DNA from: Alkalispirochaeta sp.
GTDB taxonomy: Bacteria; Spirochaetota; Spirochaetia; DSM-27196; Alkalispirochaetaceae
Direction: 5' to 3'
DNA length: 64,000 nucleotides
Assembly (NCBI GenBank): GCA_965601925.1
Contig: OZ271854.1
Span: forward strand, 1,312,001 to 1,376,000
This document shows, piece after piece, positions 11,978 through 36,529 of this stretch (position 1 is the stretch's first letter; the number at the start of each line of letters is the position of its first letter). The notes under the pieces are model-generated. The model had not been told where the DNA came from and made no database searches. It was given only the letters and a program-made list of their open reading frames with translations. Both the position numbers and the translations under genes were made by a program.

Positions 11978-12098
11978 CTAATCCTCCTGAGGCTTCTTTT
12001 TATTAGATTACTGAAGTAATAGCAATATATTATCATATATCACTACTACTTCTTGCAATGTCCGCAACATCGTCGCCGAACTGCTCGGCGTGCTTGAT

Positions 12099-12188
12099 TT
12101 CCGTCGTTGTCCGCGTCGTCGTCCCACATCCGCATCCGGTGAAACGGTACGTCCATCATCGCAAGGCCCCGTCCCAGCCGCGCTTCGT
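12099..12188 (-). pseudogene. Stub toxin cassette A (90-bp homology arm only)
   Basis: Matches 21012-21101 and nearly 29289-29378 (EARLGRGLAMMDVPFHRMRMWDDDADNDG), then degenerates. Confidence 0.8.
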
Positions 12189-12202
12189 GTGTTCTCGGGC
12201 GC

Positions 12203-12347
12203 GTCTCCCCCAAGTTTCAGCCAGGGGACCGGCCGACGGTGTCGATCACTCAGCAGGAGGAACTTGGAGTCGCGCTCGCCACCGCCGTCCGTTCCCCTGC
12301 GGGTTCCAGCAGAGATGTTTCGTCCTCAGGTGATGTGTGGGGGAGAC
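12203..12347 (-). repeat. Cassette-leader structured element, copy A
   Basis: Outer inverted repeat GTCTCCCCCA/TGGGGGAGAC; inner hairpin 12222-12299 (20/24 arm match); core TCACTCAGCAGG..GAGTCGCG. Confidence 0.85.
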
Positions 12348-12350
12348 CGG

Positions 12351-12545
12351 GCTACGGGTTCCAATTCCTCAGCCCGGCTCGGTGTGGTGATAGGTGCTTT
12401 TACAGAAGTCGGACAGCTACATTTACACCGCGACGACCGCTGTTCGGCTCACTTCGGCCGCATACCCGAGCAGCACGCATTGCGTGCGACCAGGGGCCGA
12501 TCGCCAGCGGTCGTCGTCCGGGCCTGTGGGATTTCCTCCCTCCGC
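12351..12545. repeat. Second palindromic repeat (type 2), shared with 17819-17975
   Basis: High identity to 17819-17975; nested inverted repeats (ACGACCGCTG/CAGCGGTCGT); extra hairpin GCACGCATTGCGTGC in this copy. Confidence 0.75.
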
Positions 12546-12599
12546 CCTCGCGCTCGTTCTGTGGTGCAACAACCGTATGAGTGGTGCATCGCAGGTGGC

Positions 12600-13343
12600 T
12601 TACGGGAAGTCTCGCATACTTTCAGACCACTGATCGGGGTGTAACACGGGTCGCAATATCAAATCCCCTTCAAAATCATTCGTCGGATTCTCGATTGGCG
12701 AAATCATACGAAGCCAGAACTCATCGTCTCCATTGCGTTGATCGCGGATCACTTCTATGGTGAGCGCATCGGGTCCAAATGTTCCGTCGGTTTCCATTGT
12801 GTTTTCATCAACCCAACGAACCAAGTGAGTGCCTTGAGGCCAGAACGGCATATACCCATCGCTGATGCGTAAAACATAGTCCCATTCGCCCTCAAGATAA
12901 CGATACTCCGTCTGAAGCTCTTGATCTTGAGTATACCAGAAGCCCGAGAAATCAGGTTCATCCAAATCTTGAGAGTTTTCCGCTCGTCTCTGCGAACCAG
13001 AGAAATATCCTGCATTGAGATTATAGAATATGACACTTTGCCCATTATTGCGAAACTCATATCTGCTCGGATTGTCAAATTGTGCAAGTGATAATCGTAT
13101 GTTCTCATTCGTGTTATCATAATATGTCGTATATCGATCTAAGGCGAACCATCGTCCCTTAACCAATAGTGTTGCCTGATCACGTTCCGGTAGTGCTCGG
13201 AACGTAATCGGATGATCAGGTAACGGCACCAAATCGATATTCTGTACTCCCCACCCGTGCTCAAGGAGATACTCCGTCCGGTCTTGCGCCGGTACACAGG
13301 CAATGCATACAAACACCATGATACCCATCAACATCTTCTGCAT
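12600..13343 (-). CDS. Candidate immunity protein (cassette B), exported
   Basis: Starts 15 bp after the toxin-tip stop; GAGGGAG RBS; signal MQKMLMGIMVFVCIACVPA; AT-rich; paralog of 15259-16011. Confidence 0.7.
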   Translation of the reverse strand: MQKMLMGIMVFVCIACVPAQDRTEYLLEHGWGVQNIDLVPLPDHPITFRALPERDQATLLVKGRWFALDRYTTYYDNTNENIRLSLAQFDNPSRYEFRNNGQSVIFYNLNAGYFSGSQRRAENSQDLDEPDFSGFWYTQDQELQTEYRYLEGEWDYVLRISDGYMPFWPQGTHLVRWVDENTMETDGTFGPDALTIEVIRDQRNGDDEFWLRMISPIENPTNDFEGDLILRPVLHPDQWSESMRDFP

Positions 13344-13357
13344 CTGATCTATCTCCC

Positions 13358-13824
13358 TCAATATCCCGGAACCGTCGGGACCCCATTCGGAACGCTCCAA
13401 TCAATTGAATACTCCAACGGATCCCATGGCATCGCCGGTTGGGGTGTACTCGGCGACACAATAAAGAAATCAAATCGGTGGATCTCGTCCAACCGCACCT
13501 CCGTCCGGTCCGATCCATGTGACGACGGACTTTGATACGGATTCATCAGCTCAATGATCAACTCCCCGTCCTCATCCAGACGGAATCCACTCATCATCGT
13601 CGAATGGTGACTCTCGCCCGATTGGGTACTGTTTAGTCGCACGTGCGCCACAAACGCATTCGTGGAGCGATCCATCCCGTTCAGCAAATCGATCGTTACC
13701 TCCGCACCCTCAAACACTTCCTGAAAGTTGAACCGATCCCCCGTCAGCAGCTCCATCGACTCCTCGACCGTGAGGAGCGTATCGTCGCTGAACGCACCCT
13801 CCTCGCGCAGTCGATTGTTCGCTT
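13358..13824 (-). pseudogene. 3' remnant of toxin cassette B (papain/C39-like tip), truncated by IS3
   Basis: Near-identical to 16026-16490; lacks the Cys-containing segment. Confidence 0.85.
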
Positions 13825-13841
13825 TGACCTGCCCCCTGAAA

Positions 13842-14642
13842 CTAGACCACTGCTTGAGTGAGTCCGTCCTCAAAGCTTCGCCAGATTTCTTCCGGCGTGT
13901 GATTGCCAAGCGAGCTGTGTGGCCGGTACCGATTGTACTCATCGCGCCACAAAGCCAGTTTCTCCTGAGCGTCCCTCACGCCCAGGAACAGGTTCTCGTT
14001 GAGGAACTCGTCGCGTAGCTTTCCGTTGAAGCTCTCGACAAAGGAGTTCTCGATCGGCTTGCCCGGCGTGATCAGACACTGCTGAATGCCGCGCTGGATC
14101 GTCCACGCGATCATGGCCCGGGACGTGAACTCCGGCCCGTTATCACTCTTCAAACATTCCGGCTCACCGTGCATGATCATCGATTGCTCCAACGCCCGGA
14201 TGACATCAGCGCTCGAACATGAACGAGCAATTCGTGCTGTGATCAGATACCGTGTGTACTCGTCCAACACGACCAGACACTTCAACGACCGTCCGGATTC
14301 AGTCGTGTCGAAAACGAAATCCAATCCCCAGATCTGATTGGGCCGCATCGCTGCACTGGCCCTATTGCGCTGCACGATGAGCTTCTTCCGGCGTCGTGAG
14401 CGGAGCATCAACTGTTCCTCGCGATAGATCCGGTACACTTGCTTGTGATTCGCTTCACTATGGTCTCGCCGCAGTAACACGTGGATCCGACGATACCCGA
14501 ACCGCTTGTGCCTCTCGGCCAGTTCCTTGATGCGCGCCCGAATCCGAAGATCGTTCGGGTTCTTTGCCTCATACCGACATGTCGATCGATGCAGCGACGC
14601 CAGTTCGCACGCTCGTCGCTCACTGACCCCATGGTGTTTCAA
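13842..14642 (-). CDS. IS3 transposase OrfB (DDE integrase core)
   Basis: WGLDF, LKSDNGPEF, PGKPIENSFVESFNGKLRDE; lies in the -1 frame relative to orfA. Confidence 0.95.
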   Translation of the reverse strand: MKHHGVSERRACELASLHRSTCRYEAKNPNDLRIRARIKELAERHKRFGYRRIHVLLRRDHSEANHKQVYRIYREEQLMLRSRRRKKLIVQRNRASAAMRPNQIWGLDFVFDTTESGRSLKCLVVLDEYTRYLITARIARSCSSADVIRALEQSMIMHGEPECLKSDNGPEFTSRAMIAWTIQRGIQQCLITPGKPIENSFVESFNGKLRDEFLNENLFLGVRDAQEKLALWRDEYNRYRPHSSLGNHTPEEIWRSFEDGLTQAVV

Positions 14643-14677
14643 CGCCCCGACAGCCGATCGTCGCTGATGAGGCGTCG

Positions 14678-14941
14678 TCAGTTTTTTGACAGCACCTCCT
14701 TCATCGCGTCGATCTCAAGCGCCTGGTTGGCGACCAGCCTTTTCAGTCTGGTGTTCTCGTCTTCCAGTTCTTTCAGTCGTCGCGCCTCGCTGGTTGTCAT
14801 TCCGCCATAGCGAGATTTCCACCGGTAAAACGTATTCTCCGCAAACCCGTACTTCCGACAGATCTCCTTCGCCGGAACACCGGACTCGGCTTCCCCCAAG
14901 ATCGCAATGATCTTCTCAACCGAATACTGACCCTTCTTCAT
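14678..14941 (-). CDS. IS3 transposase OrfA (HTH)
   Basis: MKKGQYSVEKII...TFYRWKSRYGG...LKELEDENTRLKRL; ends at an AAAAAAC slippery site. Confidence 0.93.
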   Translation of the reverse strand: MKKGQYSVEKIIAILGEAESGVPAKEICRKYGFAENTFYRWKSRYGGMTTSEARRLKELEDENTRLKRLVANQALEIDAMKEVLSKN

Positions 14942-15012
14942 GTTGTCTCTCCCTCCTATTATACCGGGAAAAACTCACCTTCTTGCTGGACCAGTTTTGT
15001 GGGAGCAGGTCA

Positions 15013-15077
15013 CCACCGCATAGTCGACCGCCGCGCCGACCGCATTCGCTCCCAGGCTCACCAGTGAGTTCACCGCA
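15013..15077 (-). pseudogene. 5' remnant (65 bp) of toxin cassette B
   Basis: Matches 20406-20470 (AVNSLVSLGANAVGAAVDYAV). Confidence 0.85.
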
Positions 15078-15092
15078 TAAGGATTTGGACAC

Positions 15093-15185
15093 GTCTCCCG
15101 ATGTATCATGAGAGGGAGCGGCGAACGGCGCCGGTCACTCAGCAGGAGGAACCTGAAGTCGCGACCGTCACCGCCCGCCGCTCCC
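15093..15185 (-). repeat. Cassette-leader structured element, copy B (divergent)
   Basis: Same core TCACTCAGCAGGAGGAACCTGAAGTCGCG; arms differ in sequence but stay complementary (GGGAGCGGCG.../...CGCCGCTCCC), 15114-15185. Confidence 0.85.
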
Positions 15186-15258
15186 AGCTTTGCATGTGGG
15201 CGTGTCTTATTCTCGGATTAGATAACAGAGTTTGAGGAAGCAGGATTCTTTGGGCAAT

Positions 15259-16011
15259 CTACGGGAAATCTCGCATGGTTTCAGACCGTTGATCGGGATG
15301 CAACACAGGGTGCAATATCAAGTCGCCTTCAAACGCGTTCTCAGGATTCTCGATTGGCGAGACCATACGCAACCAGAACTGGTCTTCTCGCATCATCCGA
15401 TGCTCTTCGATCACCTCAAACACGATGCGGTTCCCAAATGTATCGTCGGTTTCCAACGTGTTCTCGTCGATCCATCGTACGAGATGGGTTCCTTTGGGCC
15501 AAACTCCGGGATGTCCGTCAGCGACAGATAGAGCAAAATCCCAATGCTCCGAGGAGTCAACATAACGATATTCTCTAAACATATCTGGCGATTCCGAGCT
15601 TTGCCAAACACCTTCTAGTGTTAAATTATCCAATGCTGCATCATTATTCTCTACTTTTATGAAATAGCCTGCTAATATATTGAAACGAGCAAGGGTTAAC
15701 TGCAAAGCCCGACCTTCATTCAGAAGCTCGTATCCTAAAGAGTTTGGATCATTGCCTATCGGTTCAATTTGAGTGTCCGTTATAGAATAAGTTTGATAGT
15801 CATTCTCTAGATGAGAAAACGATGCTTTTATGACTTGACGATCATTAACATATTCTGGCAACGACCGAAACGTAATCGGCTGATCAGGTAACGGCACCAA
15901 ATCGATATTCTGTATTCCCCACCCGTGCTCAAGGAGATACGCCGTTCGGTCTTGCGCCGGTACACAGGCAATGCATACAAACACCATGATACCCATCAAC
16001 ATCTTCTGCAT
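15259..16011 (-). CDS. Candidate immunity protein (cassette C), exported
   Basis: Directly after the cassette C stop; signal peptide; AT-rich core. Confidence 0.75.
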   Translation of the reverse strand: MQKMLMGIMVFVCIACVPAQDRTAYLLEHGWGIQNIDLVPLPDQPITFRSLPEYVNDRQVIKASFSHLENDYQTYSITDTQIEPIGNDPNSLGYELLNEGRALQLTLARFNILAGYFIKVENNDAALDNLTLEGVWQSSESPDMFREYRYVDSSEHWDFALSVADGHPGVWPKGTHLVRWIDENTLETDDTFGNRIVFEVIEEHRMMREDQFWLRMVSPIENPENAFEGDLILHPVLHPDQRSETMRDFP

Positions 16012-16025
16012 CTGATCTATCTCCC

Positions 16026-17652
16026 TTAATATCCCGGAACCGTCGGGACCCCATTCGGAACGCTCCAATCAATTGAATACTCCAACGGGTCCCATGGCAT
16101 CGCCGGTTGGGGTGTACTCGGCGACACAATAAAGAAATCAAATCGGTTGATCTCGTCCAACCGCACCTCCGTCCGGTCCGATCCATGTGACGACGGACTT
16201 TGATACGGATTCATCAGCTCAATGATCAACTCCCCGTCCTCATCCAGACGGAATCCACTCATCATCGTCGAATGGTGACTCTCGCCCGATTGGGTACTGT
16301 TTAGTCGCACGTGCGCTACAAACGCATTTGTCGAGCGATCCATCCCGTTCAGCAAATCGATCGTTACATCCGCACCCTCAAACACTTCCTGAAAGTTGAA
16401 CCGATCCCCCGTCAGCAGCTCCATCGACTCCTCGACCGTGAGGAGCGTATCGTCGCTGAACGCACCCTCCTCGCGCAGTCGATTGTTCGCCTCAATACCG
16501 GTCATGTCGTCACCGGTCATCGCGTTCGCCGCATACAAGGCACTATACAACACGCATCCGTATCCACCTAATGAGACAAACGGTACCTCGCCTTCGTAGC
16601 CATATTCTCGACTTACAAATGCTCTGTTGTCAGGGTCGGTAGCGAACTCCTCAAACTCCTCGCGACTCAGGCTGCTCTCAAATTCAGAGAGATTACCCTC
16701 AAAGTTAGGACCAGCTTCACGTTGAAGGAACCGATTATACGCATCATCTATCCGTTGTTCGTTGATCTGGTCTACGGTTTCACGGCTCAACGCCTCGCCC
16801 AACGCTTCCCGCCAGTTCGCCGCATCGCTCTGATACTCGCCGGCCGTATTCAACTCAGGGAAGAAATGATCCATCGGCCCTTCATTCGGTCGGTAGTTCT
16901 CCGGGTTCAAGAGCCCCGCCACAATCGCCTGCCCAAACGCCTCGTTCCCTTCCAGTCCCCACGCATCCATCAGGTTTCGGTACGTCTCTCCCGTTCGCCG
17001 GTACGCACTCGCCTCCGTCGTCTCGCCCAATACCGCGCGCTCCACCAGGTGCGTCGCTTCATGCGCCATCGCACTTCCCAACATCGCCGAGCTCTCCCGG
17101 TCGTTCCCCGTCAATGCTCGCGACAACACGATCGTGTCCGGGTTGTCCGAGTCATACCGTCCGTACTCGCCCTCCGCCATATCGTCAAACTCACTCTTAA
17201 TCCGTCGCTCCCACACCGCACCCGCTAAGGCCGTGTCGCGTCGGTCCCGGCTGTACGATAACGTGTTCGCCGCATTCAGGATCGCTCGGTTCTCCACACC
17301 CCGTTGCGTCCCCAACGCGCCGCCGACCTTCGCACTCGTCACCCGTACCACATCCGATAATCCTTCCAGGCTCGTCGCTACCAGGTCCAGTCCGACGTCG
17401 TATCCGCCGCTCCCCACGTTGAACAACGCACCGCCTCCGCCAAGGTCCATCTGCAGCACGCCCGCCGATAACTCGTTCCCCTTCTCGTCGGTGATCCCCA
17501 GCATCCGCCCCATGTTTACCACGTTCAGCGATGCGCTCCCGTCGATCGCGTACTCCGTCGCCGCGCCAATCGCACTCGAGGTGATCGTCGCCGCGCTCCG
17601 TAATGCATCCAAGTTAAAAGTATTCTCCGCGAGGGCATCGCCGATCCCGTCG
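16026..17652 (-). CDS. Orphan toxin cassette C: HExxH pre-toxin domain plus papain-like/C39-like tip
   Basis: 17002-17652 matches main gene 28133-28783; HEATH motif; tip has GYGC...HHSTMM...MNPY (Cys-His-Asn order); no signal peptide. Confidence 0.8.
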
Positions 17653-17665
17653 GTCGTTAGACGCA

Positions 17666-17814
17666 CCTCCCCCGAGTTTCAGTCAGGGGGACCGGACGGC
17701 GGTGTCGATCACTCAGCAGGCCCTTCGGGCCAGAAGTCGCGCTCGTCACCACCGTCCGTTCCCCAGCGGGTTCCAGCAGAGATGTCTTGTCCTCAGTGAT
17801 GTGAGGTGGGAGAC
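17666..17814 (-). repeat. Cassette-leader structured element, copy C
   Basis: Hairpin 17687-17764 with GGCCCTTCGGGCC tip and conserved core. Confidence 0.85.
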
Positions 17815-17818
17815 CGGA

Positions 17819-17975
17819 CTACGGGTTCCAATTCCTCGGCCCGGCACGGTGTGGTAATAAGTGCTTTCTACAGAAGTCGGACAGCTGCAGTTACGCCACG
17901 ACGACCGCTGTTCGGCTCACTCCCGATCGCCGGCGGTCGTCGTCCGAGCCTGGAGGATTTTCTCCTTCCACCTTC
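17819..17975. repeat. Second palindromic repeat (type 2), shared with 12351-12545
   Basis: Direct sequence similarity and nested inverted repeats. Confidence 0.75.
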
Positions 17976-18106
17976 GCGCCTCGGCGAGTTGTGCAGCGTT
18001 TGATTCACTCACGCGTTGACGCGCCATGGCGTTCTGTCTTGTTCTTTCAAAAACGGCATGTGGTCCCCCTCCTCCACGATGAGGTTCTGGACACCACACC
18101 CACAGG

Positions 18107-18649
18107 TCAGGGAACGTCATCCCGGGTGATTTCAGTAACCACCGCGTCGATAATCAAGAGGTCTTCTGTTGTAGGTAGCAGCACTTCTATCTGCTCTGCC
18201 GTCACCGTGAAAGTAAAAAACCGTTCCGGCCCTACCTCGTTGCTTACTTCGGTGCCGAGAAACTGAAACAAATAGTACACCGTCATCACTCTTTCGGCAC
18301 GTTCAATGTGCTGCACTTCCGTTCGTGCCGCGCTACTCGCATACTCAACGTATCGAATGCCGGTCTCATCGAGGTAAAACGTTCCAAAATAGAACCCATC
18401 TTCGTCTTCTACGTCGATTGCTGAAAGGTCCGGTATCACCGCGAACAACTCATCGAGTGTTCTCGGCTCCACCGGTTCCTGCACTTCGGAAACAGACTCC
18501 TCAGCCTCCGCCGGTACCGGATCGGCGGTCATGACCTCCCGTGCCGATTCCTCCCGCGCACTTCCGCAACTCCATGCTACGAGAAAAAGGAGCACCACCA
18601 GACTCATCCTCACGACCATCATTCCGCGACTGGTTTGAACGTTTACCAT
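18107..18649 (-). CDS. Candidate immunity lipoprotein (cassette D)
   Basis: Overlaps the cassette D stop; lipobox-like LLFLVAWSC. Confidence 0.75.
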   Translation of the reverse strand: MVNVQTSRGMMVVRMSLVVLLFLVAWSCGSAREESAREVMTADPVPAEAEESVSEVQEPVEPRTLDELFAVIPDLSAIDVEDEDGFYFGTFYLDETGIRYVEYASSAARTEVQHIERAERVMTVYYLFQFLGTEVSNEVGPERFFTFTVTAEQIEVLLPTTEDLLIIDAVVTEITRDDVP

Positions 18650-21101
18650 CGTGGTCTGAACTCCCAGTGCAAGTGCGGTCCCGTCGAGTTTCCGGTATTC
18701 CCCACGTTCCCAAACTGGTATCCCGGCGGGAGGGTGAATCGGTAGATGTCCGTCGCCCGCGCCGCTTGAAGCAGATCGTTGAGTTGGTTCGAGGCACGCG
18801 TATTAGGCTGCAAATGCCCATAGATCATATCGAAGTCGGGCGTCCTGGTTCGCAGATTCAACCCATACCCGGCACTCGGATCATTTGGGTTATCCCACCC
18901 AAGCGGATTCATGCCCACTATCACCGTCTCCTCCTGTGTCGTAAACAACGGATGGTTCTGTCCAAAGGTCCTGAGATCTATTGCCTCACCACCGCCCCAG
19001 CCATGCTCACGGCCATCCTCGTAAAGGGAGAATGTCGAAATGTCATCTCTTCCTTGAATCGGATCGATCACTCGCCCATCGCCGATTAACTCATACATCG
19101 GGTTGTTGTTGTCCAGGCTCCACTCGTCCCGGATTCGACCGAACGCCTGTGCAACGTCGTCTTGCGAGTACTGTTCGTTTCGCTCTGCGTCCAGCAACCC
19201 CGGTGCTCCGAACGACCCGTACCGCTGTCCATACAACGCCGCGTCGTACTCCTGGGCAAATCCCTCCATCGAGTTCGCCGCCTCGTACTGCGCCGCAATC
19301 TCCGGTGTCATCGTACCGTTCCGCAGCGCCGTCATGAAGTCAGTCTCGGCGCTCTCTTGCGCCGCATTCACCGCAGCTACCATGCTCCCACCGAACGCAC
19401 CTACGTTGTCGATGTAGTCCCGCTGCATGAAGTATCGCGCCTTGAAGGCTGCTCCCGGATCAAGGGTATGATCTGCGTCGTTCTTCACGTCCGTCGCCCC
19501 TCCGTTGGTCGTGAACGTCCCGTTCTCATACGTCCACCCGGCGTCGATCATCATCTGGTTCGCCTCGGCCTCCGTGATTCCCAAATGCTCGGCAAGCGAC
19601 GCCGCATAGCCACCCTCTCCCTCAAACTCTCGAAGGAGTTCGTCATTCTCGTCGTATACGCCTTTCCGGCCGTCAAAGATCAACTCGCCTTGTGCGGTGA
19701 GTTTCCAATAATCCGCACTCGAATCATACGCCGTGGCCGCATACGCCGCAAAGTCCCCCTGGCCCGCCTGCGCCTTGAGGTACTGGTTGACGTCCTCGGC
19801 AAGGTTCGCGTCGTTCATGATGAAGTCCATCCCATACGTCTCCGCAGCACGCATCGCAAACTCCGTATGGCCCGTCACCGCGCTCACCGTCTCCGCGTTG
19901 TCCCCGTCCGCGATCCCGTCTCGGTAGCTCTCATGACTCAGCACACTCGCCGCCACCAGCTGCTCCTCCAAACTATCCCCGATCGCTCCCAGGTAGATGT
20001 CCTTCCCATTCCCTCCCGCAATCGTCTGCGCGCGTGCTCCTTCGCTCCCCGGTGCCCCGGTCAGGTGTAGCCGGTCCACTCCCTCCAGGATGTTCCCGTA
20101 AGTACTTCGCTCCCCGCGCTTCCCAAAGCTCCATGTGGCGCGTAACGTGTTCTCCGCCGCGGCGTTGTGCGTGTTCTCCTCGATGTATCGGTCGATCCGG
20201 GCCCGCTGGTGTAGGACGTTCGCTCCCATCATTCCGTTCGCCACCAGGTCGACCCCGATGTCGTAGCCGCCGCTTCCCACGTTGAACAGTGCGCCGTTAC
20301 CGCCCAGGTTCATCTCTAACGCACCCGCCGAGAGGGCGTTCCCCTTCTCATCTTCGATTCCCAGCATCCGGCCCACGTTCAATACGTTAATCGCCACCTC
20401 GCGATCCACCGCATAGTCGACCGCCGCGCCGACCGCATTCGCTCCCAAGCTCACCAGTGAGTTCACCGCACCCATGTGCTCCCGGGAGAATCCCGCCAAG
20501 TCGTCCATCTTCGCCAAACTCCCGAAACCGGACTGCGCCAACCCTTGCGCCGCGCCGCCGGCGTAGCCCGCTACCGCACTCTCGCCGAAGGTCGATCGGC
20601 GGAAGCCCCGTTCGTCAAAGTCCATGTCAAAGCTCGCGTCGATCGAGAATGAGTTGATCGCGCTGCTCATCGCCGTCGTCGCTACCGCCTGCGTCGTGCT
20701 CACCCCCACGTTCACCGCCGTCTGCGTGATCGCTCTGCTGCCGTCGACCGCCTTGCCGGCAAGCGTTCCCAACTGGTCGAATCCCTTCGCCATCCCGGCG
20801 CTCGCCAGGCTCACTGCCGTGCTCTTCGCAAAGCTCCCCAACGCGTCGTCCGCGTCCGCGTATCCCGTCGCGATGTCCGTCACCGTAAACGCCGCATTCG
20901 TCGCGATCGTTGCCGCCAACGATACGCCCGCTCCCGCTCCCAACGTCGCCACCGAGACCACCACTCCCGTTACCGTCACGATGTTCGGGGCGCCGAACAG
21001 TCCGTCCGGACTTCCGTCGTTGTCCGCGTCGTCGTCCCACATCCGCATCCGGTGAAACGGTACGTCCATCATCGCAAGGCCCCGTCCCAGCCGCGCTTCG
21101 T
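18643..21101 (-). CDS. Orphan toxin cassette D with M23 (LytM-like) peptidase tip
   Basis: 20536-21101 matches main gene 28813-29378; 19738-20535 matches cassette E; tip has AIDL...YGHL...VGNTGNSTGPHLHWE. Confidence 0.85.
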
Positions 21102-21115
21102 GTGTTATCGGGCGC

Positions 21116-21260
21116 GTCTCCCCCAAGTTTCAGCCAGGGGACCGGCCGACGGTGTCGATCACTCAGCAGGAGGAACCTGAAGTCGCGCTCGCCACCGCCG
21201 TCCGTTCCCCTGCGGGTTCCAGCAGAGATGTTTCGTCCTCAGGTGATATGTGGGGGAGAC
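21116..21260 (-). repeat. Cassette-leader structured element, copy D
   Basis: Near-identical to copy A (offset 8913); hairpin 21135-21212. Confidence 0.88.
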
Positions 21261-21370
21261 CGGGCTCTCCGGGGCTCCGCGGCTGAATCGGCGGGCTACA
21301 CGGTACGCCCGCCTGCCGCTCCGGTCTCACGAAGTGAGACCCACTTCGCGGCCCCTTCGATCCCTCGCGC
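21261..21370. repeat. Third palindromic repeat (type 3, REP-like), shared with 25796-25905
   Basis: ~110 bp near-identical to 25796-25905; hairpins GGCGGGC/GCCCGCC and GGTCTCAC-GAA-GTGAGACC. Confidence 0.8.
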
Positions 21371-21559
21371 TTGTTAACGGATGTATTGTCTACGGAAGCA
21401 GCAGGTTGCCGCAGGAGCGTTGTAACACAGGCAATAGCGGATTGGTGGAACAACGCCATGTTTAGTATCACGGCGAGGCGAGACTGTGTCGAGAAAGCAC
21501 CTTGGTGCATTCCCGTTTCTACCAATCACCTGGTTATTGTTGTCATTTCGCCTTAGATA

Positions 21560-22600
21560 CTACGGTCTCTCCTCAGGGGCCAATGCTTGATACTGCACCG
21601 GTCCTGTCGACAAAACCGAACCATCCACAATCCGGCGCTCCAACTCAAACACTTCGCCAATCTCGTATCCCTCACCGAATCCCTCGCTATCCATAGCATA
21701 CACGACTGTGTCGTAATGCTCAGTTGGATCCTCGTCAACAAAGCCGTAGATATAGATGATTGATTGTCTATTTGGCATTCGAAGTACGTTTCGCGTACTC
21801 CAGGTCGCCGTGTTTTCATTGAGAAATAGGAATTGTCCCCCGGGACTTACTTGAAGGATTGTAGGATTGAGATGAAGATGCCCACTGTATACCTGAATGC
21901 TGGGCAGGACATGGGCCGTCGAACCATCCGGTCTATACAGTCGTAGATCGGACGGATCGGTTGGGTCTGTTCCATCCGACGCTCCTATTCCCACAATGTA
22001 CTCACCCCATTGTTCCCAGTCGTAGAAGCTCTCGTTCCTAACGTTCCGTCCCCGGTAAAAGTCGTTTATTGCGATCCGCGCTAACGTTTCGGAATAAGGC
22101 CTAGGCGTTCTTGGTGTTATAGCCGCACGTTGTTCCCGAACTATAATCGGTGTAGTCGGATAAACCGCACCGCTCTCAATCGAATAGACAAACCGCTCAT
22201 ACTCACGTCGAACGCCTGTGGGTGCGGAAGCGTCGATCTCGAATACTACCATAGGAGAGAAAAACATCGACTTGTTATCCCTAGACGGAGTGAGAGAAAC
22301 ACCGAATACTTCGTCGTATGACGCTACTCGTACGACGGTCCCGGCAATGAGGTCCGCCACGAATATGTCGATATTCTGAAGATCTGCTCCCCGTCGTTCC
22401 TCCACGACTTCTCGTATCGGTATGACCAGACGATGATCGTCCAGCCACAGATAGCGAGGTCTTATCTCAGACGCTCCGACAACACTATCAGATACATGCA
22501 CCGCATACTGTAATGCAAGGTACTTTTCGTCCGTAGGCTGCGCGTTTGCCGTTGGTGCGAGCGCCGCCATCAAGGCGACGATTATCCCTACGACTGCCAT
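21560..22600 (-). CDS. Candidate immunity protein (cassette E), exported
   Basis: Overlaps the cassette E stop; signal MAVVGIIVALMAALAPTANA; lower GC; start uncertain. Confidence 0.7.
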   Translation of the reverse strand: MAVVGIIVALMAALAPTANAQPTDEKYLALQYAVHVSDSVVGASEIRPRYLWLDDHRLVIPIREVVEERRGADLQNIDIFVADLIAGTVVRVASYDEVFGVSLTPSRDNKSMFFSPMVVFEIDASAPTGVRREYERFVYSIESGAVYPTTPIIVREQRAAITPRTPRPYSETLARIAINDFYRGRNVRNESFYDWEQWGEYIVGIGASDGTDPTDPSDLRLYRPDGSTAHVLPSIQVYSGHLHLNPTILQVSPGGQFLFLNENTATWSTRNVLRMPNRQSIIYIYGFVDEDPTEHYDTVVYAMDSEGFGEGYEIGEVFELERRIVDGSVLSTGPVQYQALAPEERP

Positions 22601-25600
22601 AGGTTGTGTATATTTCTCATAATCAACTCCATTGCCCAGTCGCTCGCCTCGGGCGTGACGAACTGATCGTCCATCCACGGTATGAGTGAGTGTATATCAT
22701 TTCCGTTCTGTCGGTAGAGATCGATAATCGTATTCGGCATCATCCTGTTAGTCTCATGTCCCCCAAAGATCTTGGACCATGATGTCTCCGGATGCGTACT
22801 AAGAGTAGGATATGTAATGGTAGGGTCTTGCGTTGCCCAAGTGTTCTCGATTGGATCAACTAAAACGTTCGTGATGAAGTCCAAATGTGGTCCGGTAGAC
22901 TCGGCTCCGGTGTTGCCGATACTGCCGATTCTCATTCCCGCCGGCACGCCACTCAATCCTCGCCCCGTTGCGGTTACCCCCCTCGTGCCGAAGACTCCTA
23001 AGTAGTCCATGATGGTGTTCCCGTGGAGGTGGGAATACTGCCCTTGCACTGTCGCGCCAGTCGATATCGTTTGTAAGCCAAAGATCGGATCATCTTGCAA
23101 CTCGACGTGACTCTCTTCCCGCGACCGCACTCCCACTTCACCCCCGGTATACCGGCTGCCGTCCTCTCGATACACCGCAAAGTCTGCGCCCTCGTGATAG
23201 CGATTTGTTGGCTCACCGTGCCGATTCAACCGGAACCGGTGTCCTTGCGGCGAAGTCAACAGCGTATGGTCCCCCTCGCCAGGATAGATGATCGGGTCGC
23301 TCGGATCAAATGGCCCGACATTCGCGTCGTTCTGTATCAGCAAACCGCTACTCTGTGCCGCCACCAACGCCTGGTCCAATGTCGATATCCCTGCGTCCGT
23401 GACGCCGTTCCGCATCAAGTTATCGGCTATCCGCGACACATCCGCGAACTTCTCAGTCCCAGACCGGAATCGTAATAATGTATCCGCGTGCCGACTTGTG
23501 TCCGGTCCCATTCGAAACACACCTGGCTCCGTTGCTGGCGCGTCGGTCACCGCGTCCGCCACCAGATCTATGATCGTCTCGTCCATGTCCTCGTGACGCA
23601 CCCGCCCGTCTTCGGTCAGACCGCTCCCATTTCGACGCAATGCTTCTTCTACCGCCGCTCGCTTGTCCGGCGAAAGCGCACTCAGGTCAAAATCCAGATT
23701 TCCATCTTCCTGCCAGCCCCATTCACCATTCTCATCCTGCACCAACGCCCAGAAGTCCTGGTCCGATCGGTACGCCTGCGTCGCATACGCCGCAAAGTCC
23801 CCCTGGCCCGCCTGCGCCTTGAGGTACTGGTTGACGTCCTCGGCAAGGTTCGCGTCGTTCATGATGAAGCCCATCCCATACGTCTCCGCCGCACGCATCG
23901 CAAACTCCGTATGGCCCGTCACCGCGCTCACCGTCTCCGCGTTGTCCCCGTCCGCGATCCCGTCTCGGTAGCTCTCATGACTCAGTACACTCGCCGCCAC
24001 CAGCTGCTCCTCTAAACTATCCCCGATCGCTCCCAGGTAGATGTCCTTCCCATTCCCTCCCGCAATCGTCTGCGCGCGTGCTCCTTCGCTCCCCGGTGCG
24101 CCGGTCAGGTGCAGCCGGTCCACTCCCTCCAGGATGTTCCCGTAGGTGCTCCGCTCCTCGCGCTTCCCAAAGCTCCACGTGGCGCGCAACGTGTTCTCCG
24201 CCGCAGCGTTGTGCGCGTTCTCCTCGATGTATCGGTCGATCCGGGCCCGCTGGTGTAGGACGTTCGCTCCCATCATCCCGTTCGCCACCAGGTCGACCCC
24301 GATGTCGTAGCCGCCGCTTCCCACGTTGAACAGCGCACCGTCACCACCCAGGTTCATCTCTAACGCACCCGCCGAGAGGGCGTTCCCCTTCTCGTCTTCG
24401 ATCCCCAGCATCCGGCCCACGTTCAGCACGTTAATCGCCACCTCACGGTCCACCGCGTAGTCGACCGCCGCGCCGACCGCATTCGCTCCCAAGCTCACCA
24501 GTGAGTTCACCGCACCCATGTGCTCCCGGGAGAATCCCGCCAAGTCGTCCATCTTCGCCAAACTCCCGAAACCGGACTGCGCCAACCCTTGCGCCGCACC
24601 GCCGGCGTAGCCCGCTACCGCACTCTCGCCGAAGGTCGATCGGCGGAAGCCCCGTTCGTCAAAGTCCATGTCGAAGCTCGCGTCGATCGAGAATGAGTTG
24701 ATCGCGCTGCTCATCGCCGTCGTCGCTACCGCTTGCGTCGTGCTCATCCCCACGTTCACCGCCGTCTGCGTGATCGCTCTGCTGCCGTCGACCGCCTTGC
24801 CGGCAAGCGTTCCCAACTGGTCGAATCCCTTCGCCATCCCGGCGCTCGCCAAGCTCACCGCCGTGCTCTTCGCAAAGCTCCCCAACGCGTCGTCCGCGTC
24901 CGCGTATCCCGTCGCGATGTCCGTCACCGTAAACGCCGCATTCGTCGCGATCGTTGCCGCCAACGATACGCCCGCTCCCGCTCCCAATGTCGCTACCGAG
25001 ACCACTACTCCCGTTACCGTCACGATGTTCGGGGCACCGAACAGTCCGTCCGGACTTCCGTCGTTGTCCGCGTCGTCGTCCCACATCCGCATCCGGTGAA
25101 ATGGTACGTCCATCATCGCAAGGCCCCGTCCCAGCCGCGCTTCGTTCCGATAGAAGTCTTCCATGATCCGGCCCATCTCGCCGTAGCCCGCTTCCTGCAC
25201 TCGCTCCGGGTCGTCGCTCTTCATCACCGGTGCGTAGCCGACGTGGAAGTTGAATAGTCCCTCCGTGTCGTGGTGCAGGTACTCCTCCTCGCCGCTCTCT
25301 TCATTCTCCCGCGTTCGGTCGTAGCCCGCAGCGTGCGTCCAGCTCGCCTCGACCGCCGCAAAGCGCTCTTTGAGCTCGCCGTTCAGCTCTTCGACGCTGG
25401 TCGCCGCGGTCCCGTCGTCCTTCTGGTCGTCGCTCCGTCCAAAGATCAGGATCTGATATCGCTCCATCTCTTCGTACGCCGCCGCGATCATCGTCTGGAT
25501 GCCTCGGCTCGACAGGCCGTCCAACGACTCCTCCGAGAGGTCCACCTGGGGTGCAAAGACCGGCGCCGTAAAGTCATCATACGTTCCCGCCGTCTGCGTC

Positions 25601-25631
25601 TCCCGTTCGATTCCTCCCATCAGCGTCTCGT
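22588..25631 (-). CDS. Orphan toxin cassette E with M23-like peptidase tip
   Basis: 24580-25631 (1052 bp) matches main gene 28813-29864; tip has YHEGADF...YSHL...IGNTGAESTGPHLDF. Confidence 0.85.
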
Positions 25632-25645
25632 GGGACTTCGGGCGC

Positions 25646-25795
25646 GTCTCCCGCTCGTTCAACCAACGGAACGACCGGCGGTGTCGATCACTCAGCAGGC
25701 CCTTCGGGCCAGAAGTCGCGCTCGCCACCGCCGTCCGTTCCAGGCAGGATGAAGCAGGGGGTGTTTCGTCCTTATGATAGGTTGGTGGGGGAGAC
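25646..25795 (-). repeat. Cassette-leader structured element, copy E
   Basis: Hairpin 25668-25741; outer GTCTCCC/GGGAGAC; conserved core. Confidence 0.85.
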
Positions 25796-25905
25796 CGGGC
25801 TCTCCGGGGCTCCGCGGCTGAATCGGCGGGCTACACGGTGCGCCCGCCTGCCGCTCCGGTCTCACGAAGTGAGACCCACTTCGCGGCCCCTTCGATCCCT
25901 CGCGC
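25796..25905. repeat. Third palindromic repeat (type 3, REP-like), second copy
   Basis: Matches 21261-21370. Confidence 0.8.
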
Positions 25906-26531
25906 ATAAGCGTGTAATGCGTTTCTTATGTGAGCCGTGCCATCGTGGCTACACGCCAAACCGAGAGGCGATGGTAGCCCGACCAGTGCTTTCGGGTCTT
26001 CATCATCATTACGAGCAACTTGCGACGTGAGGCTTCGTCTGTTTTTCGCGGCTTCTCATGACCGCTCGGAGGTAGTGGTGTGTCGTGCAGGTCGACGAAC
26101 TCGTGGAGCATTGCACGAGGCCGCCTCATTTGACATACCACAATGCCCGCGGAACGTTTCGTCGGCTTTCATTTCCACAAACTGCTCGCTCATCCCAGTC
26201 GTTCCACCTCGGTGCTCGTCGTTTTATCACTCAGATGAGGTTTTGGACCCCCACGCCCTTACTTTCCAGGTTGCATTACCAATACGAGCGCGCAGCGCAC
26301 GTAGCATCTCCTCCATATGTTTCACGAGTGCGCCGCTACAATGGTACCGGATTGGTAATCGATAGGTGGAATATGGCGGTGGAGCGCTTCGGATCGACGA
26401 GACTCTATACCCCCGAGGTCACCTCGTAAGGCTTTCGTCTCCACCGACCGCTTACTTATCGCGGCTTCTTTATAGGCTCATCGTCCGAATGTGGTTCGGA
26501 CCCCAATGCCACGTGAGTCTTTGACCCCACG

Positions 26532-26951
26532 CTATTTTTGACCGTCTTCTGGAATACGTATACCGTACTCTTCCAGCCTTAGAATATCTTCTCTTGTTGC
26601 TTCTCGATACGTGTTACCAGGGAACTCGCCAGGCCCACTTATCTGTGTAATCTCGATTTCTCCATCATTCATGGATTGCTGAATTGAGTTCAATCCCCCC
26701 GTAGGACTTACATGGTAAATCACACCAGAGTCTGATGTAGCACCGATAGCCACTGAATAGCTATCCCATTCGAGGTCTACGAGCACTACAAACCAGTAGT
26801 TATCAAACTGCCTCAAAATAAGAAACTGTGGAATGAAACTCCCAACATTCCTAGTAGATAGCGTCCAGACACCACCCAAATCATCATTCTGGGCGCTAAG
26901 AGTCGCAACAAATGCAAAAGAGACTATTAGTACAATGATTACTTTCTTCAT
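26532..26951 (-). CDS. Candidate cognate immunity protein of the full-length toxin
   Basis: GAGAGG RBS, 13 bp after the toxin stop; signal MKKVIIVLIVSFAFVATLSA; markedly AT-rich; 139 aa. Confidence 0.8.
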   Translation of the reverse strand: MKKVIIVLIVSFAFVATLSAQNDDLGGVWTLSTRNVGSFIPQFLILRQFDNYWFVVLVDLEWDSYSVAIGATSDSGVIYHVSPTGGLNSIQQSMNDGEIEITQISGPGEFPGNTYREATREDILRLEEYGIRIPEDGQK

Positions 26952-26964
26952 CTTTATCCTCTCA

Positions 26965-29900
26965 TTAATGTTCCCAGGGTCGGGCACTCCAGTGCCGCCA
27001 CGAACGGAATAGATTGATTTCCCAACCGGTTATGTTACCACCATCATCATACACTGGATCATACCTTGTGCCGGGAAACTGCGATCCATCAAACCACCCT
27101 TCTCCGGTTTGAGGATTAGTGAAACCTGGTCCATGTTCCGGATGATTCCATATTCGTTCATGGTGTGCGTGAGCACCGCTCCCAGTGCCATGCAAACTAG
27201 TTGGAAAAGGTGCAATCTGCTCACCGGCTCCTATGATATCCCCAATGGCATGTCCTACTAAATCATCCGGATTCATATGCAAGATACGATCGGCATAACT
27301 CGTTCCTAAGACACTCAACAGAATCCCGTCCGTTGCATCCGCTCCCGGTATCACTTGTGCATAGCCAGGAGCAAATACTCCGATACCACCGGCCGTATCG
27401 ATTGCCGGATGTGCATAGTCCAGCCGCGCGGGACCTTGGATGTCAATCATCTGGCGCTCTGTGCGGAACCCTTGTGTAATCTCGGCTTCGGGTGTCACCC
27501 CCATGCTCGGCAACAAATACTGCTCGTTGTATGTTCCCATGCGCTGCTGCACGTCGCTCCACACCGCATTCGCCATCTGATAATCGCCATTCACCACCAA
27601 CTCTTCATACGCATTCAAAAGCCCGTCAATGGCGTCCCGTTCCGCTACCTGTTCCGTGATTCTGTCGCTCTCCTGGAATACCAACGACTCCTCAAGGCTT
27701 CGTGGGTTCCCGGCGGACGTCACGTACTCTTGTCCGTTCCACTCCGCGCCGGACGACGTCATCAGCGCATACGCCATGTCGGCGTCCGTCATATTCATGA
27801 CCTCTTCAGCGGGATATCCCGCCGCGACCAGATGGGCCACCGCATTACCCTCACCGACGTACTCCAACAGCGACTCACTGTATCCTAACTGGTGTCCTGT
27901 TTCGTCTACCGCAACATCGATAACGCGCCCAGTATCGGCATCGCGTAATGCTCGCTCTCCATTCCAGGTGATCCTCCCATCACGATGACGCGAAAAGTAG
28001 TCCACCGGTCCTCGATTGGGGAGGTAATTCTCAGGATTCCGTAACGCATCCTCAATCGCTTGTGAGAAATCCGCATCACCCTCCAACCCAAAGACATCCT
28101 TCAAGCGCTCGTATGTCTGCAGTGTTCGATTATACGCACTCGCCTCCGTCGTCTCGCCCAATACCGCACGCTCCACCAGGTGCGTCGCTTCATGCGCCAT
28201 CGCACTTCCCAACATCGCCGAGCTCTCCCGGTCGTTCCCCGTCAATGCTCGCGACAACACGATCGTGTCCGGGTTGTCCGAGTCATACCGTCCGTACTCG
28301 CCCTCCGCCATATCGTCAAACTCACTCTTAATCCGTCGCTCCCACACCGCACCCGCTAATGCCGTGTCGCGTCGGTCCCGGCTGTACGATAACGTGTTCG
28401 CCGCATTCAGGATCGCTCGGTTCTCCACACCCCGTTGCGTCCCCAACGCGCCGCCGACCTTGGCACTCGTCACCCGTACTACATCCGATAATCCTTCCAG
28501 GCTCGTCGCTACCAGGTCCAGTCCGACGTCGTATCCGCCGCTCCCCACGTTGAACAACGCACCGCCTCCGCCGAGGTCCATCTGCAGCACGCCCGCCGAT
28601 AACTCGTTCCCCTTCTCGTCGGTGATCCCCAGCATCCGTCCCATGTTTACCACGTTCAGCGATGCGCTCCCGTCGATCGCGTACTCCGTCGCCGCGCCAA
28701 TCGCACTCGAGGTGATCGTCGCCGCGCTCCGTAATGCATCCAAGTTAAAAGTATTCTCCGCGAGGGCATCGCCGATCCCGTCGCTCGTCAGGAAGTTCCC
28801 CACCATGCCGTTCGCCAACCCTTGCGCCGCGCCGCCGGCGTAGCCCGCTACCGCACTCTCGCCGAAGGTCGATCGGCGGAAGCCCCGTTCGTCAAAGTCC
28901 ATGTCGAAGCTCGCGTCGATCGAGAATGAGTTGATCGCGCTGCTCATCGCCGTCGTCGCTACCGCCTGCGTCGTGCTCACCCCCACGTTCACCGCCGTCT
29001 GCGTGATCGCTCTGCTGCCGTCGACCGCCTTGTCGGCAAGCGTTCCCAACTGGTCAAATCCCTTCGCCATGCCCGCGCTCGCCAGGCTCACCGCCGTGCT
29101 TTTCGCAAAGCTCCCCAACGCGTCGTCCGCGTCCGCGTATCCCGTCGCGATGTCCGTCACTGTAAACGCCGCATTCGTCGCGATCGTTGCCGCCAACGAT
29201 ACGCCCGCTCCCGCTCCCAACGTCGCTACCGAGACCACCACTCCCGTTACCGTCACGATGTTCGGGGCGCCGAACAGTCCGTCCGGACTTCCGTCGTTGT
29301 CTGCGTCGTCGTCCCACAGCCGCATCCGGTGAAACGGTACGTCCATCATCGCAAGGCCCCGTCCCAGCCGCGCTTCGTTCCGATAGAAGTCTTCCATGAT
29401 CCGGCCCATCTCGCCGTAGCCCGCTTCCTGCACCCGCTCCGGGTCGTCGCTCTTCATCACCGGTGCGTAGCCGACGTGGAAGTTGAATAGTCCCTCCGTG
29501 TCGTGGTGCAGGTACTCCTCCTCGCCGCTCTCTTCATTCTCCCGCGTTCGGTCGTAGCCCGCGGCGTGCGTCCAACTCGCCTCGACCGCCGCAAAGCGCT
29601 CTTTGAGCTCGCCGTTCAGCTCCTCGACGCTGGTCGCCGCGGTTCCGTCGTCCTTCTGGTCGTCGCTCCGTCCGAAAATCAGGATCTGATATCGCTCCAT
29701 CTCTTCGTACGCCGCCGCGATCATCGTCTGGATGCCTCGGCTCGACAGGCCGTCCAACGACTCCTCCGAGAGGTCCACTTGGGGTGCAAAGACCGGCGCC
29801 GTAAAGTCATCATACGTTCCCGCCGTCTGCGTCTCCCGTTCGATTCCTCCCATCAGCGTCTCGTCGATAATCACGCGTCGTTGCCACTCCATTCCTTGAC

Positions 29901-36297: not shown

Positions 36298-36529
36298 CTT
36301 CGTCCTCTCTCTATCGCTCGTCGTCGTCTCGGCCGACCCGCCGCCTCGCATGCGCCCGTTGTGCACCGCGATCGAACGCACCCTCCGCCCACGCCGCACC
36401 GGCGTCGCGCGAAGCATGCGTCCGTCGAAATCCTGGGATCACTCGAGATGGCCGTATCTCCCTCATGAACACACAACACGATACGGTCTCTCGGACCGCG
36501 GCGCTTCATATACGGAGATATCGCTGTGT

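Follow-up and report, generated by a model that had tools for sequence, protein, structure and literature searches.

A folded, non-coding repeat stands directly 5' of every silent cassette of a giant toxin gene in the 64,000-nucleotide stretch of Alkalispirochaeta sp. DNA analyzed here (the window), and it probably helped to build these cassette arrays. The repeat belongs to a dispersed family that folds strand-specifically, has one copy inserted where the congeners compared have none, meets toxin sequence at precise junctions, and includes mosaic copies. We give about an even chance to the reading that it is a lineage-restricted, non-autonomous element of the REP/BIME/MITE kind, whose strand-specific fold, end-specific joining, and copy-to-copy recombination would have made the cassette boundaries.

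The C-terminal part of the toxin resembles M23 peptidases, a similarity to be taken as a lead only, and a Protein Atlas search with the toxin returned weak M23 leads at most and no taxon. The toxin gene, its cassettes, and the presumed immunity genes occupy the following positions of the window:

26965-36417, minus strand: full-length toxin gene, 3150 aa, no Pfam family
26532-26987, minus strand: small gene 3' of the toxin gene, presumed immunity gene by position only, no family match
22588-25631, minus strand: silent cassette 1, homologous to the main gene from aa 2185 (nt 6554), starting ACGAGA
21560-22678: presumed immunity gene of cassette 1
18643-21101, minus strand: silent cassette 2, homologous from aa 2347 (nt 7040), starting ACGAAG, with a weak C-terminal M23 motif
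18107-18649: presumed immunity gene of cassette 2
16026-17660, minus strand: silent cassette 3, homologous from ~aa 2543-2546
15259-16068: presumed immunity gene of cassette 3
12600-15077, minus strand: broken fourth cassette
15013-15077: toxin-type fragment of 65 nt in the fourth cassette
13842-14642: IS3-family transposase fragment in the fourth cassette
13358-13942: C-terminal toxin fragment in the fourth cassette
12600-13400: presumed immunity gene of the fourth cassette
12096-12188, minus strand: 93-nt toxin fragment (aa 2347-2377) at the array end, directly 3' of copy A of the element

The five element copies that a sequence-only reading had placed on the minus strand align with a mean column identity of 69% and score 101-165 bits with the covariance model. 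As that reading had it, one copy lies directly 5' of each silent cassette of the window array and none upstream of the full-length toxin gene. The element is longer than it had stated, as 5' modules of ~105 or 160-215 nt precede the core. A full element of ~265-370 nt consists of a 160-nt core and one of two alternative 5' modules (X or Y), and the unit spans 160-370 nt overall. Read from the alignment, the ends are CGCGAGG... and ...GACGCGCCCGA. The copies of the window are:

25632-25904, minus strand: copy E, module Y (CGCGAGG start at 25904), 160-nt core (25638-25803), and 6-nt tail
21102-21369, minus strand: copy D, Y module and core, a mosaic
17651-17978, minus strand: copy C, short X module and core, outer stem with two G.U pairs
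15078-15244, minus strand: copy B, core alone, the most divergent, with no recognizable 5' module
12189-12552, minus strand: copy A, long X module and core, followed by just 93 nt of toxin homology
12225-12296, minus strand: long hairpin of copy A (as an example), 72 nt, with a conserved asymmetric internal loop and a variable tip

The outer stem is present in four of the five copies, copy B being without its 5' half; a cassette-type toxin fragment follows copy B from 15077. The 3' boundary of copy C is ambiguous, lying at 17651 by the 6-nt rule described below and at 17661 by BLAST.

Each of the five window copies carries a hairpin of 72-76 nt. The alignment confirms a conserved internal loop (5' side GCGCGAC-UY-C, 3' side G-CUGAGUGA), two alternative tips that are interchangeable, and, in copy B, a divergent arm sequence that has kept its pairing. 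Some copies have a mini-hairpin nested in the tip, tip inserts of 35 nt are tolerated, and UUCG and GAA-type loops cap the helices. Across 17 genomic copies, 89.5% of 601 cells are paired versus 86.6 ± 0.6% after shuffling, with none of 500 shuffles reaching 89.5%, and sliding the partners drops the pairing to 40-46%; for the long hairpin the paired share is 94.7%. Compensatory changes were found as predicted, 10 of the 37 pairs having changed on both sides in these 17 copies, a level reached by 2 of 500 shuffles. The alignment from the model search contains antisense rows and was left out of the pair counts. The claim that the window copies form G.U pairs on the minus strand only held as well: G.U outnumbers A.C by 44 to 15 over all pairs and by 31 to 4 in the long hairpin, and the minus-strand (sense) hairpin is the more stable one in 15 of 17 copies. 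For the 391 nt that surround and include copy A, the folding energy is -175.5 kcal/mol (z = -3.55), and the termini of copy A pair imperfectly over ~8 nt. The structure is kept across two genera, the independent lineages beyond the present genome being those of genomes G009 and G019. The proposal of a selected single-stranded structure is supported because compensatory changes occur together with an excess of G.U over A.C on one strand, and the compensatory substitutions argue against the element being coding. It should be noted that copies within one genome are mutually related, so the covariation may mirror evolving master copies instead of selection at each site.

The sequence-only reading had named a genome-wide scatter independent of cassettes as a result that would count against it, and the survey of the chromosome showed such a scatter. 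Twenty-one clear copies were detected genome-wide (nhmmer, E<1e-4), and extra weak or degenerate matches through the covariance model bring the family to ~21-28 overall. All three giant-toxin paralogs have copies downstream, together 10 of the 21; the sense strand of the element is the coding strand in all three toxin loci, and the modules in the arrays are all co-oriented. Eleven of the 21 copies sit in housekeeping intergenic regions, for example ilvD/lysE, two EF-G genes, and MatE/HlyIII (58 neighboring proteins scanned). Because the family is scattered around the chromosome, the element is not a cassette-only signal. At least three copies, those at ilvD/lysE, between the EF-G genes, and at 1271550, are antisense to both neighboring genes.

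The EF-G locus gives the comparison with relatives. The two genes beside the copy have matches in all 16 congeners, the copy is absent from the 6 of these 16 in which the intergenic stretch was read, and the gap between the genes is 583 nt here versus ~76 nt in congener G004. Judged by sequence comparison, the copy is an insertion relative to the congeners, at one empty site and among relatives too diverged for exact ends. Flanking direct repeats of at least 4 nt accompany 8 of 10 copies versus 39% of 88 mismatched pairs, weakly above the control, and the inverted repeats at the element ends are both short and imperfect. The gene dnaA lies at the skew minimum; with three loci near the origin or terminus omitted, the sense strand coincides with the leading-strand sequence at 14 loci versus 4 (one-sided binomial 0.015), an orientation bias that is confounded by gene-strand bias.

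The junctions between element and toxin sequence follow a common rule. In copies A, D, E, g4151, and g4146 the toxin homology starts 6 nt past ...GCGCCCGA; in B the distance is 7 nt. Homology opens with ACG in four of six independent junctions, or five of six if copy C is placed by the 6-nt rule; the frequency of ACG in the toxin gene is 0.040, so that the enrichment at the junctions has P ~1e-5 to 6e-7. The start is usually ACGR, and the six independent cassette starts, from two arrays, fall at six different gene positions. No ACGR was seen at the 3' flank of non-toxin copies, nor was any otherwise intact toxin gene seen with a simple insertion of the element. The junctions of copies A and D are 98% identical and therefore represent duplication of a ready-made junction. 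A resemblance between the 3' flank and the sequence made up of the 5' flank and the element start was considered separately and set aside, being significant in 1 of 10 copies (wE, 0 of 300 shuffles).

Recombination between copies may have left traces of its own. The Y module of copy D is 99% identical to that of copy E, while its core and adjoining toxin fragment are 98% identical to those of copy A; copy D is a mosaic because the module of E is joined to the core of A. The element combines extragenic location with a mosaic modular build, as REP/BIME sequences do. In one sample, a short-read contig joins 21305 to 25841 within the repeat and leaves out cassette 1, a joint that is ambiguous because it lies inside a 65-nt stretch matching both sides.

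In the explanation that we prefer, a modular non-coding repeat, one strand of which folds into a multi-helix structure, has spread through the genome, and in the toxin loci an element copy stands behind each toxin-immunity module. Sites inside the toxin gene, usually those immediately 5' of ACGR, would have received the defined 3' end of the element as a direct join, either through insertion or through a deletion that the element mediates next to itself. Copy-to-copy recombination would then have added, displaced, or removed modules, and the 5'-truncated silent cassettes would be the outcome of joining and recombination together. We infer that the joining may be enzymatic, with folded single-stranded DNA at the replication fork as its substrate, and that the cassettes may be shuffled as copies recombine with one another.

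The repeat could instead be a passive passenger that piles up in DNA the cell can spare and is duplicated together with the cassettes, without helping to form or move them. This is unlikely in our judgment, even though copies are scattered through ordinary intergenic DNA, the cassette arrays are dispensable DNA that has also taken up an IS3 copy, the A and D copies share a junction duplicated ready-made, and toxin homologues in four searched genomes are without the element by the model. Random insertion into spacers would give neither the ~6-nt spacing at six gene positions nor the preference for ACG, and copies stand behind all three toxin paralogs and, as two divergent copies, downstream of a toxin homologue in another genus. 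Quite unlikely is a functional structured RNA, either a cis element for processing, stability, or insulation in a long transcript of toxin and immunity genes or a ribozyme or protein-binding RNA of a kind not yet described. The one-sided G.U pairs, the internal loops conserved while stems and tips vary, the UUCG and GAA-type caps, the agreement of sense and coding strand in the three toxin loci, and the structure common to two genera would all suit an RNA, but DNA hairpins also form G.T pairs, and a search of Rfam 15 (E<=1) over both strands of 11500-37000, 25.5 kb with all five copies and both 5' modules, gave no match to any family, among them group I/II introns, known ribozymes, and HEARO. 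Promoter-like sites (10 versus 7.7 ± 2.7 shuffled) and terminator-like sites (9 versus 10.6 ± 3.8 shuffled) occurred no more often than by chance, and none of them fell inside a copy. The earlier suggestion of a silencing or processing RNA is weakened because copies lie antisense to both neighbor genes.

About equally unlikely is an integron-like capture site, at which a recombinase encoded elsewhere (e.g., of Xer type) recognizes the folded strand; modules built as [ACGR...toxin 3' part-immunity-element] would leave as circles and be inserted at the 3' end of a different element. Modules do start with ACGR, end with the element, and share one orientation, with the expressed gene free of an upstream element; the fold favors one strand and accommodates tip variation, 35-nt inserts included; one short-read contig skips cassette 1, at the ambiguous joint described above; and the genome encodes five tyrosine recombinases (PF00589). 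These lie at 3.33, 3.34, 3.57, 3.70, and 5.02 Mb, however, with the arrays at 1.32, 4.14, and 4.31 Mb, and no recombinase gene, attI-like site, or promoter was found at any array. The boxes of attC sites have the consensus RYYYAAC ... GTTRRRY, and no such boxes are visible in the alignment at the element ends. Solitary copies in housekeeping DNA come without ACGR, and sequence conservation is far above that among attC sites. We regard as quite doubtful the bolder version, in which a toxin integron without resident integrase uses the element for recombination and a host or distant recombinase recognizes the folded strand, cuts 6 nt past the conserved 3' box, joins to ACGR in giant toxin genes, moves the modules, and programs the switching and archiving of toxin C-termini. 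Among the three suggestions of the sequence-only reading, the MITE-like one fits best, and the attC-like one fits in part, through the precise 3' junctions, mostly at ACGR, and the variable tip, with no recombinase near the arrays.

The search for other partner enzymes was negative. In a genome estimated to be 96.7% complete there was no match to the Y1 transposase/RAYT (PF01797; the control was positive in 6 of 14 genomes), and the genome likewise gave no match to TnpB, the IS110 DEDD recombinase (PF01548), reverse transcriptase (PF00078), or a serine recombinase; one IS91-type gene is broken and far from the arrays. No autonomous insertion sequence with element ends around a transposase was found in the genome itself, in 60 relatives, or in 150 genomes of the class. 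The idea of an IS200/IS605-TnpB guide RNA, with adjacent toxin sequence as the guide, was rejected for want of Y1 and TnpB, and bridge-RNA, group II intron, and retron ideas were rejected with no DEDD recombinase, reverse transcriptase, or intron model match.

Several known systems share features with the element. REP and BIME sequences are dispersed intergenic imperfect palindromes, often just 3' of genes, that form mosaics of modules and serve as recombination join-points and host-protein sites. Like the REP/BIME/REPIN sequences of proteobacteria, the element has intergenic copies, modules (X, Y, and core), and nested mini-hairpins; unlike REP and REPIN, its unit is 160-370 nt versus 20-40 nt, its copy number is low (~21-28), the genome is without a RAYT/Y1 transposase gene, and the family is limited to this genome and a few relatives. 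MITEs such as Correia/NEMIS and ERIC are small, non-coding, present or absent between relatives, and found in transcribed intergenic DNA, and they can adjoin variable surface or toxin gene cassettes. The element matches MITEs with strong secondary structure in being small, non-coding, and, at one locus, variable in presence among relatives. In a typical MITE the terminal inverted repeats and target duplications are clear and the whole is nearly symmetric; the element, in contrast, is asymmetric and strand-specific, with imperfect termini of ~8 nt and target duplications that are putative.

Integron attC sites resemble the element in their strand-preferring single-strand fold, variable terminal structure, presence once per cassette in a co-oriented array, and recombination point at a fixed end. 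They differ in that here there is no adjacent integrase, attI, Pc, or R/L boxes, the primary sequence shows strong conservation, single copies are also found in housekeeping DNA, and the cassettes are 5'-truncated copies of one gene and not promoterless whole genes. The ends of IS200/IS605 elements and of their non-autonomous derivatives (PATEs) also carry subterminal hairpins specific to one strand, lack obvious inverted ends, join at a specific short sequence, and are oriented according to the lagging-strand template (compare the 14 loci versus 4 above); unlike these, the element resides in a genome without Y1 transposase or TnpB and has its short motif at the 3' flank in toxin loci only. 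The rAID-1 orphan-immunity arrays of Bacteroidales are described as having repetitive intergenic sequences, called reminiscent of integrons, and a conserved XerD-family recombinase (10.1101/471110). Both systems hold immunity genes and toxin remnants punctuated by repeats; unlike rAID-1, the present array has no recombinase near, is attached to an expressed giant toxin gene, and has a repeat that is also dispersed.

Matches in other collections were few. In a metagenome scan, 3 of 35 loci were true matches, each with 135.1 bits, the score of the G009 copy, and two of the three had a second, cut-off copy; four weak partial matches were taken as chance. Viral contigs gave no element match, and a pattern scan of genome contigs, its pattern too loose, returned 120 stretches, with none of 80 examined loci fitting the model. 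A self-splicing intron inside an Rhs gene of G009 was considered and rejected: the flanks are not contiguous in the intact homologue, and the region is a patchwork of fragments. No description of an element of this kind was found in the literature on polymorphic and orphan toxins, cassettes, MITEs, REP sequences, and recombination, which does not prove its absence in print.

Orphan toxin cassettes are usually viewed as products of homologous recombination and untidy illegitimate joins. The six independent cassette starts of the two arrays, most of them at one trinucleotide, all adjoin a single end of a folded repeat with nucleotide precision, and this points to a defined enzymatic joining step in the building of toxin arsenals, for which the element junction offers a concrete sequence to test. 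The covariation carries a caution for motif hunting, in that a dispersed DNA repeat can yield an RNA-like signal. Should the integron-like reading be true, the element would represent a new route to diversify bacterial weapons.

The five element copies in the window all align with one another and share the core described in the sequence-only reading, with its two alternative tips; the outer stem is found in four of the five, and the arms of copy B have diverged in sequence with their pairing kept. The compensatory-pair counts, the slid-partner control and the bias of G.U over A.C were all upheld, as was the greater stability of the hairpin on the sense strand (the minus strand here), though over the whole core of 145-183 nt the strand preference in stability vanishes (sense strand more stable in 9 of 17 copies). 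The element is real and structured, with selection acting on one strand, in keeping with the selected single-stranded structure first proposed.

Toxin locus and element copies in the window
12189-12552, minus strand, copy A
13842-14642, IS3-family transposase fragment (rve, rve_3, HTH_21) interrupting the fourth cassette
15078-15244, minus strand, copy B
17651-17978, minus strand, copy C
21102-21369, minus strand, copy D
25632-25904, minus strand, copy E
26965-36417, minus strand, giant gene (3150 aa), followed by a small gene

Upstream of the 160-nt core, similarity continues in two alternative forms, modules X and Y, both starting with CGCGAGG. The 391-nt stretch around copy A is predicted to fold into a multi-helix junction whose two termini pair to close it (-175.5 kcal/mol, z = -3.55; matched by 0 of 100 shuffles), and a second long hairpin inside module X again carries AGUGA in its loop. 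Copy D is a mosaic of a Y module as in copy E (99% identical) and a core and toxin fragment as in copy A (98% identical), with the switch point at the module/core boundary. Mosaic organisation is a feature of BIMEs, which the modular, mosaic build of the element resembles. One short-read contig connects window 21305 directly to 25841, leaving out the 4535 nt of cassette 1 and its downstream gene; the connection falls within the Y modules, which are 99% identical, and may reflect either a deletion variant or the route of the assembly through the repeat. It is taken as a hint only. A separate mini-hairpin of 35-45 nt sits nested in the tips of several element copies and also occurs in tandem arrays elsewhere in the genome (65 motif matches against ~11 expected). 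It constitutes a second repeat family, with the motif GCGTACCGSAG-loop-GAGGAACGC and array periods of ~45-100 nt.

Modules, related repeats and giant-protein paralogues (chromosome coordinates, G000:C1, unless marked as window)
Module X, ~160-215 nt: window copies A and C; 4142594, 4151420, 4264857; the copy in the congener G009
Module Y, ~105 nt: window copies D and E; 4931391
Degenerate short element form, ~135 nt: 4265290-4265440, plus strand; CGCGAG start, core hairpin, GCGCCCCGA end
Mini-hairpin sites: 1522632-1523200, 1529101-1529400, 2060595-2060971, 2356835-2357159, 4987936-4988116
Mini-hairpin nested in element copies: 1766051, 4313485, 4313643, 4727988, 4265128
Giant-protein paralogues, 3070-3150 aa: window 26965-36417; 4152466-4161678; 4315336-4324689

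A profile of the five window copies locates the element at 21 places in the 5.05-Mb genome (E<1e-4), and covariance model R1 adds ~7 weaker, partly truncated places. Ten of the 21 belong to three loci that each start with a giant-gene paralogue (five copies in the window, three near 4.14-4.15 Mb and two near 4.313 Mb). The remaining eleven lie between ordinary genes, and the signal is not confined to cassettes; examples are found after ilvD, between two EF-G genes, between a MatE pump and an HlyIII-like gene, after a GH65 hydrolase, next to guaA, and between rhodanese and isochorismatase genes. Among the 58 neighbours scanned no transposase or integrase adjoins a copy, the IS3 fragment of the window excepted, and at least three copies run antisense to the genes on both sides.

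Both EF-G genes are matched in all 16 congeners searched, and the gap between them measures ~76 nt in one of them (G004) compared with 583 nt in this genome, where it holds one full X-type copy head-to-head with the degenerate form; short gaps with a terminator-like hairpin occur in the six congeners whose intergenic stretch was read. Among 60 relatives the covariance model recovers the element in two, G009 (same genus, 135 bits) and G019 (another genus of the family, 39 bits), and among 150 further genomes drawn from the class in none, counts that refer to genomes searched, many of the relatives being fragmented assemblies, from which repeats are often missing. In a metagenome collection, three of 35 pattern matches are real, all scoring as the G009 copy (135.1 bits), and at two of these three loci a second copy follows 1.3-1.5 kb downstream, the interval holding an Rhs fragment and two small genes. 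On these G009-type contigs (L235 2131-2767, equivalent to L044 2210-2846) the small genes overlap and, judged by eye, putatively resemble a nucleotidyltransferase/HEPN-type toxin-antitoxin pair. As a repeat the element is dispersed and lineage-restricted, of the REP/BIME/MITE kind.

Beyond the giant gene and its small gene lie four more units, each repeating the last third of the giant gene in 5'-truncated form, with a C-terminus that differs from the others and a small gene downstream. The giant protein matches no Pfam family, nor do any of the three paralogues, and the C-termini give weak M23-peptidase signals only; the labels toxin, immunity and silent cassette thus rest on architecture rather than on a family match. 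Of 40 relatives, six have homologues of the giant proteins. The broken fourth cassette and the end of cassette 3 are close paralogues (95%; window 13185-13484 vs 15853-16152), as are their downstream genes (81%; 12601-12730 vs 15260-15389), so the array also grew by local duplication. The IS3-type sequence has close relatives at 2184129 and 4227264, and the genes immediately upstream of the giant gene in the window (37921-40724) are, by eye, putatively outer-membrane-factor-like and membrane-fusion-protein-like.

Copies lie directly downstream of all three giant-toxin paralogues, the third being followed, beyond its downstream gene, by two nested copies with no cassette after them. Profile and covariance-model searches of the genome place none upstream of the full-length gene, as the sequence-only reading had stated. 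The end of each toxin-immunity module is therefore a better description of where the element sits than the start of each cassette. G019 has two divergent Y-type copies, both on the coding strand and downstream of a toxin homologue, and these copies show compensatory differences (e.g., helix cap GAAG there vs UUCG here); the homologues of four other relatives have no copy within the stretches examined. The toxin association is both real and old.

By BLAST of the 3' flanks, toxin homology begins at a constant distance from the conserved 3' box, 6 nt past ...GCGCCCGA in window copies A, D and E and in the one at 4151420; in B the distance is 7 nt. For the copy at 4146892, similarity to the main protein (aa 2583-2648, E = 6e-5) starts from the second codon past the same 6-nt tail, while the junction of copy C is ambiguous, the BLAST match running on for another 10 nt with two mismatches. 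The joins fall at about aa 2185, 2334, 2347, 2543-2546 and 2582, with one more in a cassette-type region. Counting A and D as one event gives six independent joins, and ACGR opens the toxin side in four of them, or five if C is read by the 6-nt rule; ACG occupies 4.0% of gene positions (P = 1.3e-5 for 4/5, ~3.5e-5 for 4/6, 6e-7 for 5/6), and ACGR was not seen after the tail of non-toxin copies. A fixed end at varied sites with a short motif in common is the signature of end-specific strand transfer (insertion or adjacent deletion), and is not what random illegitimate recombination would leave. In copy E only, the 5' flank and module Y start (window 25890-25920) resemble toxin sequence just past the 3' junction (25590-25631) in a 27-nt local alignment reached by 0 of 300 shuffles, with nothing comparable in the other nine copies.

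The cumulative GC skew has its minimum at dnaA (1.594 Mb) and its maximum near 3.8-3.9 Mb. Counting each locus once and omitting three near origin or terminus, the sense strand carries the leading-strand sequence at 14 loci, against 4 with the opposite arrangement (one-sided binomial 0.015). The lagging-strand template has the same sequence as the leading strand. At loci flanked by lagging-strand genes, four copies are oriented with replication and two with transcription, so the bias is not simply gene co-orientation, on small numbers.

Several explanations for the arrays can be weighed. The element departs from known repeats in the nucleotide-precise abutment of its 3' end on truncated toxin genes at ACGR, in two arrays, and in its link to the same toxin family in a second genus. 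That it is a passive passenger is unlikely. The strand-selected fold would also suit a functional RNA, an improbable reading, and an integron-like capture system is about as improbable. In Bacteroidales, orphan immunity genes have been described in arrays that carry a XerD-family recombinase and intergenic repeats resembling those of integrons (10.1101/471110). Here all five tyrosine recombinases lie far from the arrays, the one IS91-type gene (3.754 Mb) is split in two frames, and genes for a Y1 transposase, TnpB, an IS110-type recombinase, a reverse transcriptase or a serine recombinase are absent. Toxin diversity has been described as arising by recombination with stand-alone cassettes (PMC3482391). 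The leading explanation, given an even chance of being correct, is that end-specific joining of the element's 3' end to toxin gene sites would have built the cassette arrays, and that recombination between element copies may both have contributed to their construction and continue to reshuffle them.
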